Of a DNA stretch of 64,000 nt, positions 2-6,113 are shown one piece after another. The notes under the pieces are model-generated. The model was not told the origin of the DNA. It saw nothing but the letters and a program-made list of their open reading frames with translations, and did not search any database. The first letter of the stretch is position 1. Every line of letters starts with the position of its first letter. Where the stretch lies: positions 3,043-67,042 of IMG/VR virus record IMGVR_UViG_3300032292_000722; one strand, given 5' to 3'. Origin of the DNA: a virus (lineage: Duplodnaviria > Caudoviricetes). The translations under genes were made by a program, and so were the position numbers.

Positions 2-88
2 GAATTAATCCATGGCAAATTGAAAAAAACTTTTGACCAACAACGCGTGTTAGATGAGAGATTGTTTGATACTATTTATGCAGGTTAA
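2..88 (+). CDS. 3' end of a hypothetical protein truncated by the window edge
   Basis: Open frame ELIHGKLKKTFDQQRVLDERLFDTIYAG ending in TAA at 86-88, inside hammerhead stem I. Confidence 0.5.
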   Translation, partial: ELIHGKLKKTFDQQRVLDERLFDTIYAG

Positions 89-135
89 CTGATGATGGAA
101 TGAATTTCCGAAACCACCTTCGGGTGGTCTTAACC
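83..135 (+). ncRNA. Type I hammerhead ribozyme HHR1
   Basis: GGTTAA(83-88) CTGATGA(89-95) T GGAA-tgaat-TTCC GAAA(110-113) CCACC-ttcg-GGTGG TC(128-129) TTAACC(130-135). Full conserved core, three helices, UUCG tetraloop, GUC cleavage triplet. Confidence 0.9.
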
Positions 136-149
136 AAAAAATTATAAAC

Positions 150-383
150 ATGGAAACATTAACATTAACACCAATGGATTCTTATCGTGCTTGCTCAATC
201 ATTGAACAATTTTGTGAAGATGTGCCGACTCCTAGAGAAAAAGTAGAGGCATGGGCTTATCTTATCAAGACAGGTGATTGTTGGCGATTACAAGGCTTTT
301 ACGGGCGCTTTGCATCTCAATTAATAGAGAATGGCATTATCGCATCGGACGGCGAAATTTTGACTGATTTAGATAATTATTAA
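150..383 (+). CDS. Conserved phage hypothetical protein (AWAYLIKTG..W.LQG.YGR motif)
   Basis: 77-aa ORF with A-rich leader; motif resembles a small-protein family common in aquatic phages. Confidence 0.8.
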   Translation: METLTLTPMDSYRACSIIEQFCEDVPTPREKVEAWAYLIKTGDCWRLQGFYGRFASQLIENGIIASDGEILTDLDNY

Positions 384-401
384 ACTATTAAATTAAACGA
401 A

Positions 402-494
402 ATGAAAAATTACAACTTTGATAAACTTGCCGCGTTCCTTCAATTAACTGCCGTTATTGTATCCATTATTTATGTAATTGTAAAACTAAATTAA
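402..494 (+). CDS. 30-aa single-transmembrane microprotein
   Basis: MKNYNFDKLAAFLQLTAVIVSIIYVIVKLN; fills the gap between two ORFs, A-rich leader, stop abuts next ATG. Confidence 0.55.
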   Translation: MKNYNFDKLAAFLQLTAVIVSIIYVIVKLN

Positions 495-495
495 A

Positions 496-768
496 ATGAA
501 AAATAAAATCCTGCAATCAATTTACAATCTAGCTTATTATTTGGATGATAAACTAGATTACATTAAAACTTATGATTACGAAACTGCTCCTTATTGTGGT
601 CATCATTACAATGGTCATAAAGGTAAATTCACCGCATCCGGTTATCATGAAGGTGATGGTGAATGCTATTGTAAATTTTTATATTGGGTAATTACAAAAT
701 CTACCGAGGATAAAACTTGGTATATGCAAACAAAAAAAAGATTCAATAAATATTATAAACGATTTTAA
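496..768 (+). CDS. Hypothetical protein
   Basis: 90-aa ORF in tightly packed + strand array. Confidence 0.7.
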   Translation: MKNKILQSIYNLAYYLDDKLDYIKTYDYETAPYCGHHYNGHKGKFTASGYHEGDGECYCKFLYWVITKSTEDKTWYMQTKKRFNKYYKRF

Positions 769-778
769 ATTAAACAAA

Positions 779-1042
779 ATGAAAAACAAAATACCAACGA
801 AAGTATTAGAAGGATGGATAAGCAAACTTTTAGAAGAATTTGACGCAGATGAATTATTTAAGATGCTAGCAAACGAATGCGATAAAAAACAAACTGCATA
901 TCTGCATGACGCAATTAAAGACGAATTAAGGCTACATGATACATATGTGATACAATGTACCAACTTAAATGATAAGCTAAAATTCGAGGCATTTATGGAC
1001 GATTACAAACCATTTTATAACGAACAATCTTTAATATTTTAA
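779..1042 (+). CDS. Hypothetical protein
   Basis: 87-aa ORF, A-rich leader. Confidence 0.75.
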   Translation: MKNKIPTKVLEGWISKLLEEFDADELFKMLANECDKKQTAYLHDAIKDELRLHDTYVIQCTNLNDKLKFEAFMDDYKPFYNEQSLIF

Positions 1043-1053
1043 AATTAAAAATC

Positions 1054-1437
1054 ATGGAAAACAAATTCGTAGTTGATTATGATAACAAAGTATTGACTTT
1101 GCATTATCAAGACCATATCTTTATGTTTGATTTAAATGCCGGTGACACAGGTGATTTTTGGCATGGATTTGAACTTAAAAATGGAACTAAACTAGATGTT
1201 AACTTTCATCAAGAAAGTGCAAATGATGAACCCTATTGCGAGATATGGGGTATTGGATATTTGCTTACTTGGGGTAAAGATGATGTCAGAGAATATTGCA
1301 CCCAACAAATAGATAGTATTGATGAATGTGAGATTCTAGGTAATCCTATAAATTACTTTGGAGTGGAACCTATCAATATCCCATGGATGAATGCATTTGA
1401 ATTAGATAAACAATTTACAAACTTTAAAATTAGATAA
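1054..1437 (+). CDS. Hypothetical protein
   Basis: 127-aa acidic ORF, A-rich leader. Confidence 0.75.
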   Translation: MENKFVVDYDNKVLTLHYQDHIFMFDLNAGDTGDFWHGFELKNGTKLDVNFHQESANDEPYCEIWGIGYLLTWGKDDVREYCTQQIDSIDECEILGNPINYFGVEPINIPWMNAFELDKQFTNFKIR

Positions 1438-1438
1438 A

Positions 1439-1672
1439 ATGGAAAAATACATTGACGCAACACCGAAAGGAACTTTTTACATTAATGAATTAGCCTGCGA
1501 GCTTGCTGATTTATTTATACAGCACACCTATGAACATACTACCGAGGTGATTTGGGAAGATGATGGTGATGGTGGTAGCAGGTACACTGAATTCATACAG
1601 GAACAATTTGATGCCATGCATGACAAGATTGAATCTTACTTATTAAGAAATCAATTGACTAAGGTTAACTGA
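1439..1672 (+). CDS. Hypothetical protein; stop codon lies in the HHR2 core
   Basis: 77-aa ORF ending AAG GTT AAC TGA; TGA(1670-1672) is part of CTGACGA. Confidence 0.75.
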   Translation: MEKYIDATPKGTFYINELACELADLFIQHTYEHTTEVIWEDDGDGGSRYTEFIQEQFDAMHDKIESYLLRNQLTKVN

Positions 1673-1718
1673 CGATGGGTAAATCCTTGAAACGAGCTAG
1701 CAATGGCTCGTATTAACC
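1663..1718 (+). ncRNA. Type I hammerhead ribozyme HHR2
   Basis: GGTTAA(1663-68) CTGACGA(1669-75) T-GGG-taaa-TCC-TT GAAA(1689-92) CGAGCTA-gcaa-TGGCTCG TA(1711-12) TTAACC(1713-18). GNRA loop on stem III, GUA triplet, weak stem II. Confidence 0.75.
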
Positions 1719-1731
1719 AAAAATAAAGATT

Positions 1732-2262
1732 ATGAACATTGAACTTAAAAGTTTCAAGCACTATCAAAAGCTAAGTGATGAAACCTATTGCTTTACTGCT
1801 AATATCTATGTCAATGGTATTAAATGCGGAACCGCTGAGAATCGTGGGATTGGTGGCGAAACAGATTATTCTAGTGACAGAAGGATGGGTAGCGATGAAC
1901 TTATTAAACAAGCCGAACAATATTGTCTTGGCTTACCTAGTGAAACATTGGTAATGGGTGACCGAACGATTACCTTGAACATGAATCTATGTAACTACAT
2001 TGACAATTTTGTAGATGGATTGGTGAAAGCCAAGTACAAAGAAAAAGATGCTCAAAAACTGCGTAAAGAAATGCTTAGTGGCATTCTTATAGGCGATGAC
2101 GAGAAGTACGCTAAAATAGGCTTCAAAATCCCTTTAAGCGATGTTATGGCAAAGCATCCGGAATACTTTCAGAAAACTTTAAAAGAAATGCTAGTTAAAC
2201 ATGGCAAAAATGGGAGCCGATTATTAAATACCAACATACCAAAACATTTTTTACCTAGTTAG
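1732..2262 (+). CDS. Conserved phage hypothetical protein
   Basis: 176-aa ORF starting 19 nt after the predicted HHR2 cleavage site. Confidence 0.85.
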   Translation: MNIELKSFKHYQKLSDETYCFTANIYVNGIKCGTAENRGIGGETDYSSDRRMGSDELIKQAEQYCLGLPSETLVMGDRTITLNMNLCNYIDNFVDGLVKAKYKEKDAQKLRKEMLSGILIGDDEKYAKIGFKIPLSDVMAKHPEYFQKTLKEMLVKHGKNGSRLLNTNIPKHFLPS

Positions 2263-2302
2263 GTTAACGAGGGGTGCGCATTCGTAAAACGCACATTTTT
2301 TT
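2262..2302 (+). other. GGTTAAC-led H-type pseudoknot or terminator-like element
   Basis: ACGAG(2267-71)/TTCGT(2281-85) and GTGCG(2274-78)/CGCAC(2290-94) interleave as a pseudoknot; followed by T7(2296-2302). Confidence 0.45.
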
Positions 2303-2436
2303 AAAAATTATGACTTATCCCTAACAGTGGGGCAAAATTTATTTTTTAAAATTTAAAACAAAAAAGTTACCATATTATTTAATCTATTTTGCTCAATTTA
2401 AAACAAACTAAATTTATAATTATTAAATTATCTAAA

Positions 2437-2604
2437 ATGAAAACCATCAAAAAACTACAAAATCAAATCAAAGCTCTTAACAAAAAATTAGAACTAAACC
2501 AAGCTAAAAATGTCTACGCTGTAATGGGGAAGATTAAAAAATTAAAAGAACAATTGCAGGTAGAAATAGACAATCACAATTGGGAATCATATCTATCAGA
2601 GTAA
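2437..2604 (+). CDS. Coiled-coil hypothetical protein
   Basis: ATG at 2437 with A-rich leader preferred over the upstream TTG start in the ORF track. Confidence 0.65.
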   Translation: MKTIKKLQNQIKALNKKLELNQAKNVYAVMGKIKKLKEQLQVEIDNHNWESYLSE

Positions 2605-2623
2605 ATTAATTAAATTAATTTAT

Positions 2624-2654
2624 TTTGCTGTAACCATAATGATACATATATTTG
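2624..2654 (+). promoter_or_regulatory. Bacteroidota sigma70-type promoter
   Basis: TTTG(2624-27), 19-nt spacer, TATATTTG(2647-54). Confidence 0.75.
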
Positions 2655-2677
2655 TCCTCAAACTAAAAAAAATAACT

Positions 2678-2824
2678 ATGAAACTATTAATTAAAGAAAC
2701 CTTAATTTTTGTATTTGAAATGCTGAAATTCTTTTTCATTAGCGTCCCGCTTGCTTGTTGCGTGTATTTTACGGCGCACCTTTATTTTGAATTTAAAAGA
2801 TTATGCCATGGAAAAAACAGCTAA
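2678..2824 (+). CDS. Small membrane protein
   Basis: MKLLIKETLIFVFEMLKFFFISVPLACCVYFTAHLY..., hydrophobic stretch, downstream of promoter. Confidence 0.6.
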   Translation: MKLLIKETLIFVFEMLKFFFISVPLACCVYFTAHLYFEFKRLCHGKNS

Positions 2825-3044
2825 GAAACTACTATGCGAAACATTCTTTAAGATGTTTAAGAGCGAAGCTTTGCCTAACCTAGATATGGAAGATTTTATA
2901 GCCATGTGGCAAGCATTAGCCGATAAATGGGGAGTAATTAAATCCGATAAAGAATGGGATGAATTTGCAGAAGAGATTAACTGCGTAGCATCCAACAGAG
3001 AAAACTATTTTAACGAAATTTTTGATAAACATTTTAACAATTAA
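2808..3044 (+). CDS. Hypothetical protein
   Basis: Probable start MEKTAKK at 2808. Confidence 0.65.
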   Translation: MEKTAKKLLCETFFKMFKSEALPNLDMEDFIAMWQALADKWGVIKSDKEWDEFAEEINCVASNRENYFNEIFDKHFNN

Positions 3045-3047
3045 ATT

Positions 3048-3254
3048 ATGCAAAAAGAAACAACGACCCACTATTTGCACATGCAAGAAGATGGGCAGTA
3101 CATTACTTTACAACTACCTTTTACTATTATGCCTAATGTAGGAGATTACGTTAGCTTTATTGACGAGATTGGTGAAACACAATTTTTGATAGTAAGTAAA
3201 AGATTATTTAATCAAGCAACCAACAATTTAGTAATAACATTAAAAAACATATAA
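3048..3254 (+). CDS. Hypothetical protein
   Basis: 68-aa ORF in array. Confidence 0.7.
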   Translation: MQKETTTHYLHMQEDGQYITLQLPFTIMPNVGDYVSFIDEIGETQFLIVSKRLFNQATNNLVITLKNI

Positions 3255-4069: not shown

Positions 4070-4199
4070 AGTATCTATTAGAGAATATAATTATTATGAT
4101 GCGTATAATCGTAGAAGAATGTTACGGATATGGGATGCAGAAGTTAAGCCCAATGGTAAAGATGAATATTATTTAATTATTAAGCCTAATTTAGACTAA
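4050..4199 (+). CDS. Hypothetical protein
   Basis: Probable start MQLFKNK at 4050. Confidence 0.55.
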   Translation: MQLFKNKVSIREYNYYDAYNRRRMLRIWDAEVKPNGKDEYYLIIKPNLD

Positions 4200-4629: not shown

Positions 4630-5637
4630 TTAAACAATTTTTCCTTTAAAGATACGCTTATTGTTGAATTCAAAGTCTTCGCCGTTGGTATCAAGTTCTA
4701 CTTCAGCAAAACCATGATTCCACTTATTTAGAGGCATATAGGCGGGGTGTAATTCACTTAGGCAACCCAATGACCATGTAGTTACCATTTTGCCCGTAAG
4801 GGTCGGTTCTGTATGCTCGGAGGTTTGATGATTATGCCCTTGGAAAGTGCTGACCTTTGCTTTAAGGAATAATCCTCTAGCTGGGTTTACGGGAGCTGAT
4901 ATACCACCTACATATTCGTGACCATGAATTCCCCAAAGGTTATTTAATTTCATTGGTCTTTTATCTCCTATGATTTCTATGCCTCTGGCTCTTGCCTTAA
5001 TGATATTTTCAAATTCAAACTCTTCTATGCCCACTAATTCACCGGCTTTCTCGTAAAGGAAATGTTCGTATCGTTCCTCGTGGTTTCCAATTTTGAAATA
5101 TATTTTGCACTTTAATTCCTTCTCAAAGATATCAAACAAGGCTTTGAATGTATCTAGTTCTAGCTTGAAGTTTCTTTTCTTGGGGTCTTTGATGAATCTG
5201 CTAAGTCTATGGCAGTCAATGGTATCTCCATTTAAAAGTAAAGCGTCAGGTTTACTTTTCTTGGCATAATGTAAAGCTGCCGTTATTGCATCTATGCTAT
5301 GGTATGGTACATGAATGTCCGAAAGGATTAAAACTTTCTTATGCCCTTTGAAGATGTATGGTTCAAATGCTGTTTCATCTGATTTAGGAAGATTGTAAGG
5401 ATTGTATGGTCTAGCTTCGGCTTTTATAAATTCACTATTTTGGATAGTTTTTTTTGACCTATGTATGTTTCCATTTTTACCTTCAATGTATCTTAAAGAA
5501 GACCTAGCCCGTTCTTCATTTATGAATGTTAGATTATTTTCTGCGTACATTATCCTAGCTAATTTCTTAGTAGGCATGTCGGGGTGTTTGGCTCGGTAGG
5601 TTTTTGCGATTAGGCTGTTCCCGTTGTTGGATGGCAT
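4630..5637 (-). CDS. Calcineurin-like metallophosphoesterase with N-terminal extension
   Basis: SDIHVP, LNGDTID, GNHE, HGHE, GHNH metal-binding motifs. Confidence 0.85.
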   Translation of the reverse strand: MPSNNGNSLIAKTYRAKHPDMPTKKLARIMYAENNLTFINEERARSSLRYIEGKNGNIHRSKKTIQNSEFIKAEARPYNPYNLPKSDETAFEPYIFKGHKKVLILSDIHVPYHSIDAITAALHYAKKSKPDALLLNGDTIDCHRLSRFIKDPKKRNFKLELDTFKALFDIFEKELKCKIYFKIGNHEERYEHFLYEKAGELVGIEEFEFENIIKARARGIEIIGDKRPMKLNNLWGIHGHEYVGGISAPVNPARGLFLKAKVSTFQGHNHQTSEHTEPTLTGKMVTTWSLGCLSELHPAYMPLNKWNHGFAEVELDTNGEDFEFNNKRIFKGKIV

Positions 5638-5642
5638 ATATT

Positions 5643-6113
5643 TTATTTGTATGGAGAATAGTGTGGTTTTCCATCAACTCTAGTCGCCTTTAAAATTTGT
5701 TTTCTTTGCTTACCGGTACTTTCATAAGAAACATGAACCCAATCTGGGTTTTCATTGGTACCAAATTCCCAAATTAATTGGTCAAATTCTAAATTATCCT
5801 TGATGTAATTAAATACCATTTTATTGGTAACCCCATTTGCACTACCATCCATATCAATATCAATAGCCTCACCTGTGCTATGCTGTGATGTGGGTGATGC
5901 CCCTTTCGTGCAAGCATTAAGTTCTTTAGACCTATATCCCGAACTGATGTGAATAGGACAACGAAAATTGTTTCTTATTTTTTCAAATACATTTTCTGCT
6001 AACAATTTAAAGTTAGCTATATGTTCCTCTGTTGGCATGTTTGATATGCCTTGACGCTTGGCAGTTTCGCTACGAATTACTTCTGCTAAGTCTAAGTGTT
6101 CTGAAAGTTTCAT
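5643..6113 (-). CDS. Endolysin, peptidase M15 family
   Basis: SSGYRS..LN, SQH..GEAIDID, WVHVS motifs. Confidence 0.85.
   Translation of the reverse strand: MKLSEHLDLAEVIRSETAKRQGISNMPTEEHIANFKLLAENVFEKIRNNFRCPIHISSGYRSKELNACTKGASPTSQHSTGEAIDIDMDGSANGVTNKMVFNYIKDNLEFDQLIWEFGTNENPDWVHVSYESTGKQRKQILKATRVDGKPHYSPYK

Follow-up and report, generated by a model that had tools for sequence, protein, structure and literature searches.

The window analysed here, a stretch of 64,000 nt from a Caudoviricetes phage, covers bases 3043-67042 of the single 67,042-nt contig IMGVR_UViG_3300032292_000722, and "genome" coordinates refer to that whole contig. An early operon of small genes spanning the left end of the window carries five type I hammerhead ribozymes. 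It is judged fairly probable that these five elements segment the early message, an account that includes a benefit from the leaders released by cleavage and a packing rule for the stop codons of the upstream genes. A search of the 67-kb genome with the full descriptor of the motif returned five copies versus 0.03 in shuffled sequences, all of them on the plus strand and within 3.8 kb (Table 1).

Five hammerheads in one array

Hammerheads 1-3 lie just upstream of the window and hammerheads 4 and 5 inside it, and together they split the operon into blocks of 1, 2, 3, 1, 6 and 1 genes. The conserved core (C3-U4-G5-A6-N7-G8-A9 and G12-A13-A14, the A15.1-U16.1 pair, and an H17 that is not G) is present in all five copies, with 15 of 15 core positions intact in each. 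Helix I is open and carries the 5' and 3' ends, and stems II and III are closed by loops. Stem I reads GGUUAA/UUAACC in five of five copies, whereas the stem III sequences are unrelated. In the window the two cores read CUGAUGA/GAAA/GUC and CUGACGA/GAAA/GUA, the minimum-energy fold of hammerhead 4 is a three-way junction, and the predicted cuts fall 20 nt (hammerhead 4) and 19 nt (hammerhead 5) before ATG 150 and ATG 1732, respectively. The core-plus-stem-I pattern was found twice in the window versus 0.03 expected; GGTTAAC alone was not enriched there (7 found, 7.2 expected).

A covariance model, R1, was seeded with 18 copies from other phages and none from this genome. On this genome it retrieved exactly the five copies, with scores of 66-39 bits and E values of 8e-13 to 1e-6, and the next best match had E=3.8. 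The original prediction had described two complete type I hammerheads in the window; core, helices and R1 scores bear this out, and all their coordinates were correct. It had also proposed a search with Rfam models followed by a custom model. At the Rfam gathering thresholds no hammerhead was matched in the window, in its first 2.7 kb or in the first 6 kb of the genome, and the descriptor and the custom model each found all five. At E<=10, the only Rfam hammerhead was RAGATH-1 (RF03152), at hammerhead 1 (23.6 bits versus a cut-off of 56.3); the other four copies, including both in the window, had no Rfam hammerhead match even at this level. With RAGATH-1 and the other Rfam hammerheads the elements share the type I topology, the CUGAUGA...GAAA core, a long stem III and a stem I that is short and open, but the extra upstream hairpin of RAGATH-1 is not convincingly matched here.

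A standard 10.1-11.1 pair next to the core was a criterion of Perreault et al. 2011 (PMC3088659). This pair is G-C in hammerhead 1 and G-C after one extra U in hammerheads 2-4. In hammerhead 5, R1 flags a non-standard closing pair of stem II, namely U.U or, in the other register, G.U.

Covariation and architecture of the phage family

A scan of viral contigs in which the core and stem I were fixed and the interiors left free matched at least 120 contigs, and several contigs among the matches listed carry arrays of 3-5 copies. Stems II and III together with the UH site were formed in 133 of the 181 distinct matches listed, versus 7 of 3,620 shuffled interiors. In an alignment of 129 distinct copies, pairing was seen in 99.2% of the cells and double-sided changes numbered 480 versus 129 in shuffles, with none of 500 shuffles reaching the observed value; this alignment was fitted to the model and is hence biased toward structure, the free-interior scan serving as the unbiased control. 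All four Watson-Crick pair types are used in stems II and III. Judged from these sequence comparisons, the elements are real type I hammerheads with selection on the RNA fold, and the family is widespread in viral contigs. Raw-pattern matches in proteobacterial and Firmicutes genomes (Haemophilus, Providencia, Shewanella, Pasteurella, Marinobacter and Compostibacillus) scored nothing with the model at E<=0.001; the pattern alone thus over-calls, and these matches do not establish a wide host range.

A second, independent set of 138 copies from 82 dereplicated contigs was collected with stem I left free in the query. Stem I varies widely among phages, with GGUUAA the commonest sequence (about one sixth of the contigs among the matches listed). 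The view that the ribozyme inherently needs GGUUAA was discarded, given the many other stem I sequences that emerged once stem I was left free. The idea that stem I arose when insertion at a palindromic GGTTAACC site duplicated the target was dropped, as it leaves non-palindromic variants (GUAACA/UGUUAC) unexplained. The dimensions of the element are nearly fixed: 145 of 147 copies have a stem I of exactly 6 bp, and a 4-bp stem II was seen in 127 of the 181 copies among the matches listed. An unpaired A(-1) precedes stem I in 96% of copies, AA follows it (89% and 75%), and loop II has a conserved U-N-A-N-U-like sequence. From the fixed stem lengths, loop II and the flanking A residues we infer that helix I and loop II make a tertiary contact, which would permit fast cleavage at cellular Mg2+.

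Copies within a contig lie on the same strand in 72 of 72 loci, and stem I is identical in 22% of within-contig pairs versus 1.7% of pairs between contigs. The identical stem I in all five copies here, and in several other arrays, has led us to consider a model in which the 5'-OH UUAACC end of one piece pairs with the GGUUAA of the next ribozyme and is re-joined by the ribozyme or by RtcB, giving circular or spliced mRNAs. Hammerhead cleavage leaves 5'-OH and 2',3'-cyclic phosphate ends, and these are chemically compatible with such ligation. However, a stem I duplex of -4 to -6 kcal/mol would have to close loops of 0.4-1.6 kb, and 78% of within-contig pairs differ in stem I in the set collected without selection on it. 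Re-joined or circular products were also sought by Perreault et al., who found none (PMC3088659). Ligation of this kind is regarded as highly improbable.

The contig L126 (CAIMDI010000011.1), which has 76-87% nucleotide identity to the early region of this phage, is binned in a 'Candidatus Taylorbacteria' metagenome-assembled genome (MAG) and is, from its sequence, almost certainly a mis-binned phage contig. In L126 one hammerhead still precedes the DUF932 gene and another the last gene; hammerhead 4 and the gene of 77 amino acids (aa) that follows it are missing, a terminator-like hairpin standing in their place. The 5' half of its DUF932-proximal ribozyme is 97% identical to hammerhead 4 of this phage, not to hammerhead 3. 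These differences suggest recombination between copies and cassette-like gain and loss, pointing to a DNA-level role that need not be exclusive. In the strong version of this role, hammerhead and leader modules would act as homology blocks or selfish cassettes that shuffle small early genes, with RNA cleavage being secondary. The absence of hammerhead 4 together with its 77-aa gene, the chimeric ribozyme, the excess of stem I identity within contigs (and in five of five copies here despite unrelated stem III sequences) and an exactly duplicated 21-nt leader all favour it. On the other hand, covariation and an intact core over hundreds of copies indicate that the RNA fold is under selection, something that a role in DNA alone would not need. 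The shared block amounts to only about 13 nt plus 8 nt, and the comparison covers a single pair. As the main function of the modules a DNA-level role is considered unlikely, and it is compatible with segmentation of the message. The duplicated leader, TAACCAATTAAATTAAAAAAA, occurs at genome 1023-1043, after hammerhead 1, and at 1273-1293, before a gene without a hammerhead; the repeat could have been left behind when a hammerhead was lost, or it could be a leader motif that serves a purpose of its own. On the reverse strand of L126, at about 745-790 of the reverse complement, stands CUGAUGA-U-GGAUG-loop-CAUCC-GAAAC with no recognisable stem I or III; it may have decayed from a full copy or may represent another architecture.

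The hammerheads might instead be decaying relics that no longer cleave. Stem II of hammerhead 5 is degraded relative to its L126 orthologue, in which it is a perfect 4-bp helix, and the lack of Rfam hits would also suit such decay. Against this stand the complete core of every copy, the maintenance of stems II and III by compensatory change and the family-wide conservation of stem lengths, and we hold decay to be very unlikely.

One family member (49 bits) was found in a cultured phage, Flavobacterium phage vB_FspP_elemoA_7-9A, within a small-gene array and about 68 nt from the annotated upstream stop. The element occupies NC_055852.1 17287-17350 on the minus strand. The annotated gp68 of this phage (35 aa, NC_055852.1 17275-17382), which is oriented against all its neighbours, covers exactly this hammerhead on the opposite strand and, by its position, is probably no genuine gene.

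Leaders, stop codons and the proposed segmentation of the message

The distance from the cut to the ATG is mostly 18-27 nt in the GGUUAA set and 19-40 nt in the wider family. Family leaders are almost without G, and A peaks at -3 (75%), -6 (61%), -12 (86%) and -13 (73%); A at matching leader positions stimulates initiation in Flavobacterium johnsoniae (PMC6847099). Such an A-rich, G-poor composition fits Bacteroidota initiation, which does without a Shine-Dalgarno (SD) sequence. The original prediction of A-rich, SD-less leaders is upheld by the coincidence of the A peaks with the F. johnsoniae determinants, and its idea of a shared leader start survives in part: UUAACC opens the leaders of this array, but family-wide it is one stem I variant among many. 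Leaders without SD, as in Bacteroidota, were also seen on hammerhead contigs labelled as Streptomycetaceae or beta-proteobacterium MAGs. Within the first 6 kb of this genome the word TAACCAA is over-represented (7 found, 1.6 expected), and in the remainder it is not.

Both hammerheads of the window contain the stop codon of the preceding open reading frame (ORF), one in stem I and one in the core (Table 1). In the GGUUAA set, an upstream ORF of at least 30 codons ends next to the element in 147 of 154 copies. The first base of the stop falls at +3 (TAA in stem I) in 40 of these 154 copies, and at +7 (core UGA) in 25; another 21 have it at -2, where A-1 and G0 contribute to a UAG, and about 45 have it between -3 and -9. 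The independent set (n=138) has peaks at -3 (21), -2 (21), +1 (8), +3 (13) and +7 (21), with no stops deeper inside the ribozyme than +7 and with the stop 4-90 nt upstream in about one third of copies. In both sets, about two thirds of copies have the stop within -3 to +7 of the stem I start. After dereplication the three reading frames are used 54/52/15 (p=6e-6) and 42/68/13 (p=1e-8) in the two sets, and the depleted third frame is the one in which the ribozyme bases offer no stop. We read the stop contact as a family-wide packing rule, in which tight packing would combine with the need to stop before the cut site.

In the original prediction, stop overlap was taken as a means of coupling cleavage to translation. 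The contact is real and family-wide (frame bias p ~1e-5 to 1e-8), but it lends no specific support to gating by ribosomes, because stops built into invariant hammerhead bases explain the overlap. With gating, a terminating ribosome would melt the ribozyme, and the cut would be made only when the upstream ORF is unoccupied. The position of the stop in about two thirds of copies of both sets would suit this, since a ribosome at such a stop would, from its established footprint size, cover stem I and the core, and stem I is weak (-4 to -6 kcal/mol). Yet packing with built-in stops gives the same geometry, and contact is not required, as the third of copies with stops 4-90 nt upstream and the approximately 68-nt distance in elemoA_7-9A illustrate. 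A ribosome also occupies a stop codon for only a short time, and folding of the ribozyme can take place ahead of the first ribosome or in the gaps between successive ones. Translation-gated cleavage is rated as rather unlikely. More speculative, and doubtful, is a sensor in which the stop-embedded ribozyme senses upstream translation, being transiently unfolded by terminating ribosomes, with a variant in which a shared helix I serves re-joining or gene shuffling.

The preferred reading, segmentation of the early message, would proceed as follows. If, as we infer, the operon is transcribed as one message, a transcript of about 4.9 kb would run from the promoter-like site at genome 395-425 to the terminator-like hairpin at window 2274-2302. 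Each ribozyme would fold once the 3' strand of its stem I has been transcribed and would cut after C17 or A17, splitting the message into six pieces. Upstream pieces would end in a compact ribozyme (stems II and III) with a 2',3'-cyclic phosphate, and downstream pieces would begin with a 5'-OH UUAACCAA... A-rich, SD-less leader of 19-21 nt to the ATG; the exception would be hammerhead 3, with 9 or 45 nt. The leader would suit Bacteroidota ribosomes, and the likely benefit would be stability and translation that are independent for each piece. An ORF would have to end before the scissile bond, as ribosomes would otherwise reach the end of a fragment that lacks a stop. Stops in two of three frames come from the invariant bases A(-1), G(0), A(5) and the core U-G-A, so that upstream ORFs can run into the ribozyme.

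For the gene that follows hammerhead 3 (genome 2183-2230), the start options of the DUF932 gene lie 9 nt (ATG 2192) or 45 nt (ATG 2228) past the cut, and a small hairpin, GUGG-AGUCA-CCAC, stands between the two candidate ATGs. Start alternatives at 9 or 44-45 nt recur in other phages.

Several observations weigh against this reading. An extra U follows A9 in hammerheads 2-4, a feature found in 13 of 136 family copies (~10%). We take it to be comparable to the extra residue between A9 and G10.1 in the type III hammerheads of the viroid CChMVd. Hammerhead 5, with its non-standard 10.1-11.1 pair, may cleave slowly. The Rfam hammerhead families (RF00163, RF00008, RF02275-7, RF03152) stay below their gathering thresholds, and a promoter-like match inside the operon, at genome 4140-4171, raises the possibility of a further transcript. 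Finally, the predicted accessibility of -14..-1 barely shifts on cleavage (0.90 vs 0.90-0.93), this region being already open in the precursor.

Folding predictions place the main change at the very 5' end of the leader. For hammerhead 4, cleavage lifts the predicted unpaired probability of the first 8 nt from 0.78 to 0.96, and over the four short-leader copies values of 0.46-0.86 become 0.95-0.99; the family-wide predicted change on cleavage is from 0.60 to 0.69. Strong unmasking of the ribosome-binding region by cleavage was rejected, since only the first 8 nt alter much, and any translational gain from unmasking would be modest because the predicted accessibility of -14..-1 hardly changes. 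Independent ends and decay would be a more likely benefit than unmasking.

The early operon, its host and known systems

Genes for a portal protein, a large terminase and a primase/helicase identify the contig as that of a phage. The large terminase matched 87 cultured-phage records, all at <30% identity. Phages of Flavobacteriia hosts (Flavobacterium, Cellulophaga, Tenacibaculum, Maribacter) made up 86 of the 87, the remaining record being an uncultured virus with host not given. By this comparison the host is very likely a member of the Flavobacteriia. Bacteroidota-type promoter matches (TTTG, 17-21 nt, TAnnTTTG) were found three times versus 0.4 expected, and the array and its small early genes, all on one strand, are bracketed by promoter-like sites. 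The third match, inside the operon, could be due to chance or could be an internal promoter that splits the six-gene segment. Apart from one DUF932 protein, what separates the ribozymes is a set of small ORFs that belong to no known family. Within the six-gene segment the junctions measure 1-18 nt and hold no ribozyme, and the sole family match is phrog_3908, of unknown function. The left end of the contig (genome 1-200) is G/T-rich, with a GC skew of 0.72 and short words rich in GGT/TGG, and may be a genome terminus or repeat region.

Table 1 Features of the early region (genome, whole contig; window, the 64,000-nt stretch)
Feature	Genome position	Window position	Strand	Details
Promoter-like site	395-425			Before the hammerhead array
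Hammerhead 1	967-1027		+	
Hammerhead 2	1428-1479		+	
Hammerhead 3	2123-2188		+	
ORF with DUF932	2192-3130		+	312 aa; DUF932 at E 3.9e-15; enters window from upstream
Hammerhead 4 of 5, type I	3125-3177	83-135	+	Direct reading; R1 66 bits, E 8e-13; stem I 83-88/130-135; core CUGAUGA 89-95; extra U96; stem II 97-100/106-109; GAAA 110-113; stem III 114-118/123-127 with UUCG loop; U128-C129, predicted cut after C129
TAA stop of DUF932 gene		86-88	+	Inside 5' strand of stem I, GGT TAA 83-88; +3 register
Predicted released leader UUAACCAAAAAAUUAUAAAC		130-149	+	20 nt, without SD, before ATG 150
Six-gene segment between hammerheads 4 and 5		150-1672	+	ORFs 150-383, 402-494, 496-768, 779-1042, 1054-1437, 1439-1672
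Internal promoter-like match	4140-4171	1098-1129		TTTG, 20 nt, TATGTTTG; inside ORF 1054-1437
Hammerhead 5 of 5, type I	4705-4760	1663-1718	+	Direct reading; R1 53.7 bits, E 5.6e-10; stem I 1663-1668/1713-1718; core CUGACGA 1669-1675; weak stem II (U.U or G.U at 10.1-11.1); GAAA 1689-1692; stem III 1693-1699/1704-1710 with GCAA loop; U1711-A1712, predicted cut after A1712
TGA stop of ORF 1439-1672		1670-1672	+	Core U4-G5-A6, GTT AAC TGA 1664-1672; +7 register
Predicted released leader UUAACCAAAAAUAAAGAUU		1713-1731	+	19 nt, before ATG 1732; identical in L126
ORF 1732-2262		1732-2262	+	Stop TAG 2260-2262
Third GGTTAAC site		2262-2302	+	Heptamer 2262-2268, overlaps TAG 2260-2262
Promoter-like site	5666-5696	2624-2654		After the array

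A third GGTTAAC junction had been grouped with the two ribozymes of the window in the original prediction. Its overlap with the stop codon was placed correctly, but it falls outside the ribozyme set: even at E<=10 R1 left it unmatched, it folds no better than shuffles do (z -0.31), and the junction is absent from L126. A degenerate hammerhead at this site was rejected for lack of a model match, of a downstream TTAACC and of conservation in L126. On its 3' side lie a GUGCG/CGCAC hairpin (2274-2278/2290-2294) and a run of seven T (2296-2302), and window 2274-2302 is a weak terminator-like hairpin at which the array ends.

Between the first promoter-like site and the first ATG, a stretch of about 330 nt (genome 432-765) has a G+C content of 0.40-0.42, above its surroundings. 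GGTTAA (447-452) opens it, and it holds a 64-aa ORF (493-687). It closes with UA-UUAACCAA (743-751), 21 nt before the ATG, which looks like the leader of a hammerhead that is not there. The idea that GGTTAA and the TTAACC at genome 744 bracket a giant or split ribozyme was rejected, there being no CUGANGA core, no Rfam or model match and a fold that does not surpass shuffles (z 0.17).

The original prediction had considered the layout undescribed, which does not hold, as clustered phage hammerheads flanking genes have been known since 2011 (PMC3088659, PMC6155905). Perreault et al. 2011 (PMC3088659) described multiple hammerheads flanking single genes in prophage operons and proposed processing to operon- or gene-length mRNAs; tandem phage arrays cleaved in vitro and in vivo, and in the HF1/HF2 example, with the ribozyme 13 nt before the start codon, the 5' end was mapped. 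Hammerheads are also reported to flank small non-conserved ORFs (2017 review, PMC6155905), and the role of bacterial and phage hammerheads is described as unsolved (PMC6155905, PMC6765202). The present array is a new, well-supported example of clustered phage hammerheads, not a new kind of system. Like the arrays of 2011, it has several same-strand hammerheads among small non-conserved ORFs of one phage operon, with a ribozyme shortly before the start codon and a proposed role in converting a long transcript into mRNAs of one or a few genes. It differs in the stop-codon contact: the term "stop codon" occurs 0 times in PMC3088659, and stop codons are unmentioned in PMC6155905 and PMC6765202. 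Compared by description, these three papers are also without the exact 6-bp, open and A-flanked stem I, the frame bias and the Bacteroidota-type leader.

Type I hammerheads also fill the intergenic untranslated regions of RNA mycoviruses, with the cut a few nt short of the start codon that follows (Lopez-Galiano et al. 2026, PMC13725137). In both cases the element spans nearly the whole short intergenic region and a role in expression of the downstream ORF has been proposed. The mycoviruses are eukaryotic RNA viruses, the role proposed there is internal ribosome entry site-like and helix II is often short or absent (PMC13725137), whereas the array described here belongs to a DNA phage and has an SD-less bacterial leader and a fixed 4-bp helix II.

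The array places five hammerheads in one operon of a phage from a host group whose translation does without SD pairing. Elements of this kind are missed by annotators, as they score below Rfam thresholds, and in elemoA_7-9A a 35-aa ORF was called over one. If the sensor reading were true, the timing and extent of cutting, and the fate of the downstream genes, would depend on the translation load upstream. The statistics of the family (6-bp helix I, A flanks, 4-bp helix II, built-in stops, depleted frame and leader) make formerly vague ideas about its role testable. The cultured pair of elemoA_7-9A and Flavobacterium sp. BAL314 carries a family member, so that cleavage, mRNA stability and translational coupling would be directly measurable.

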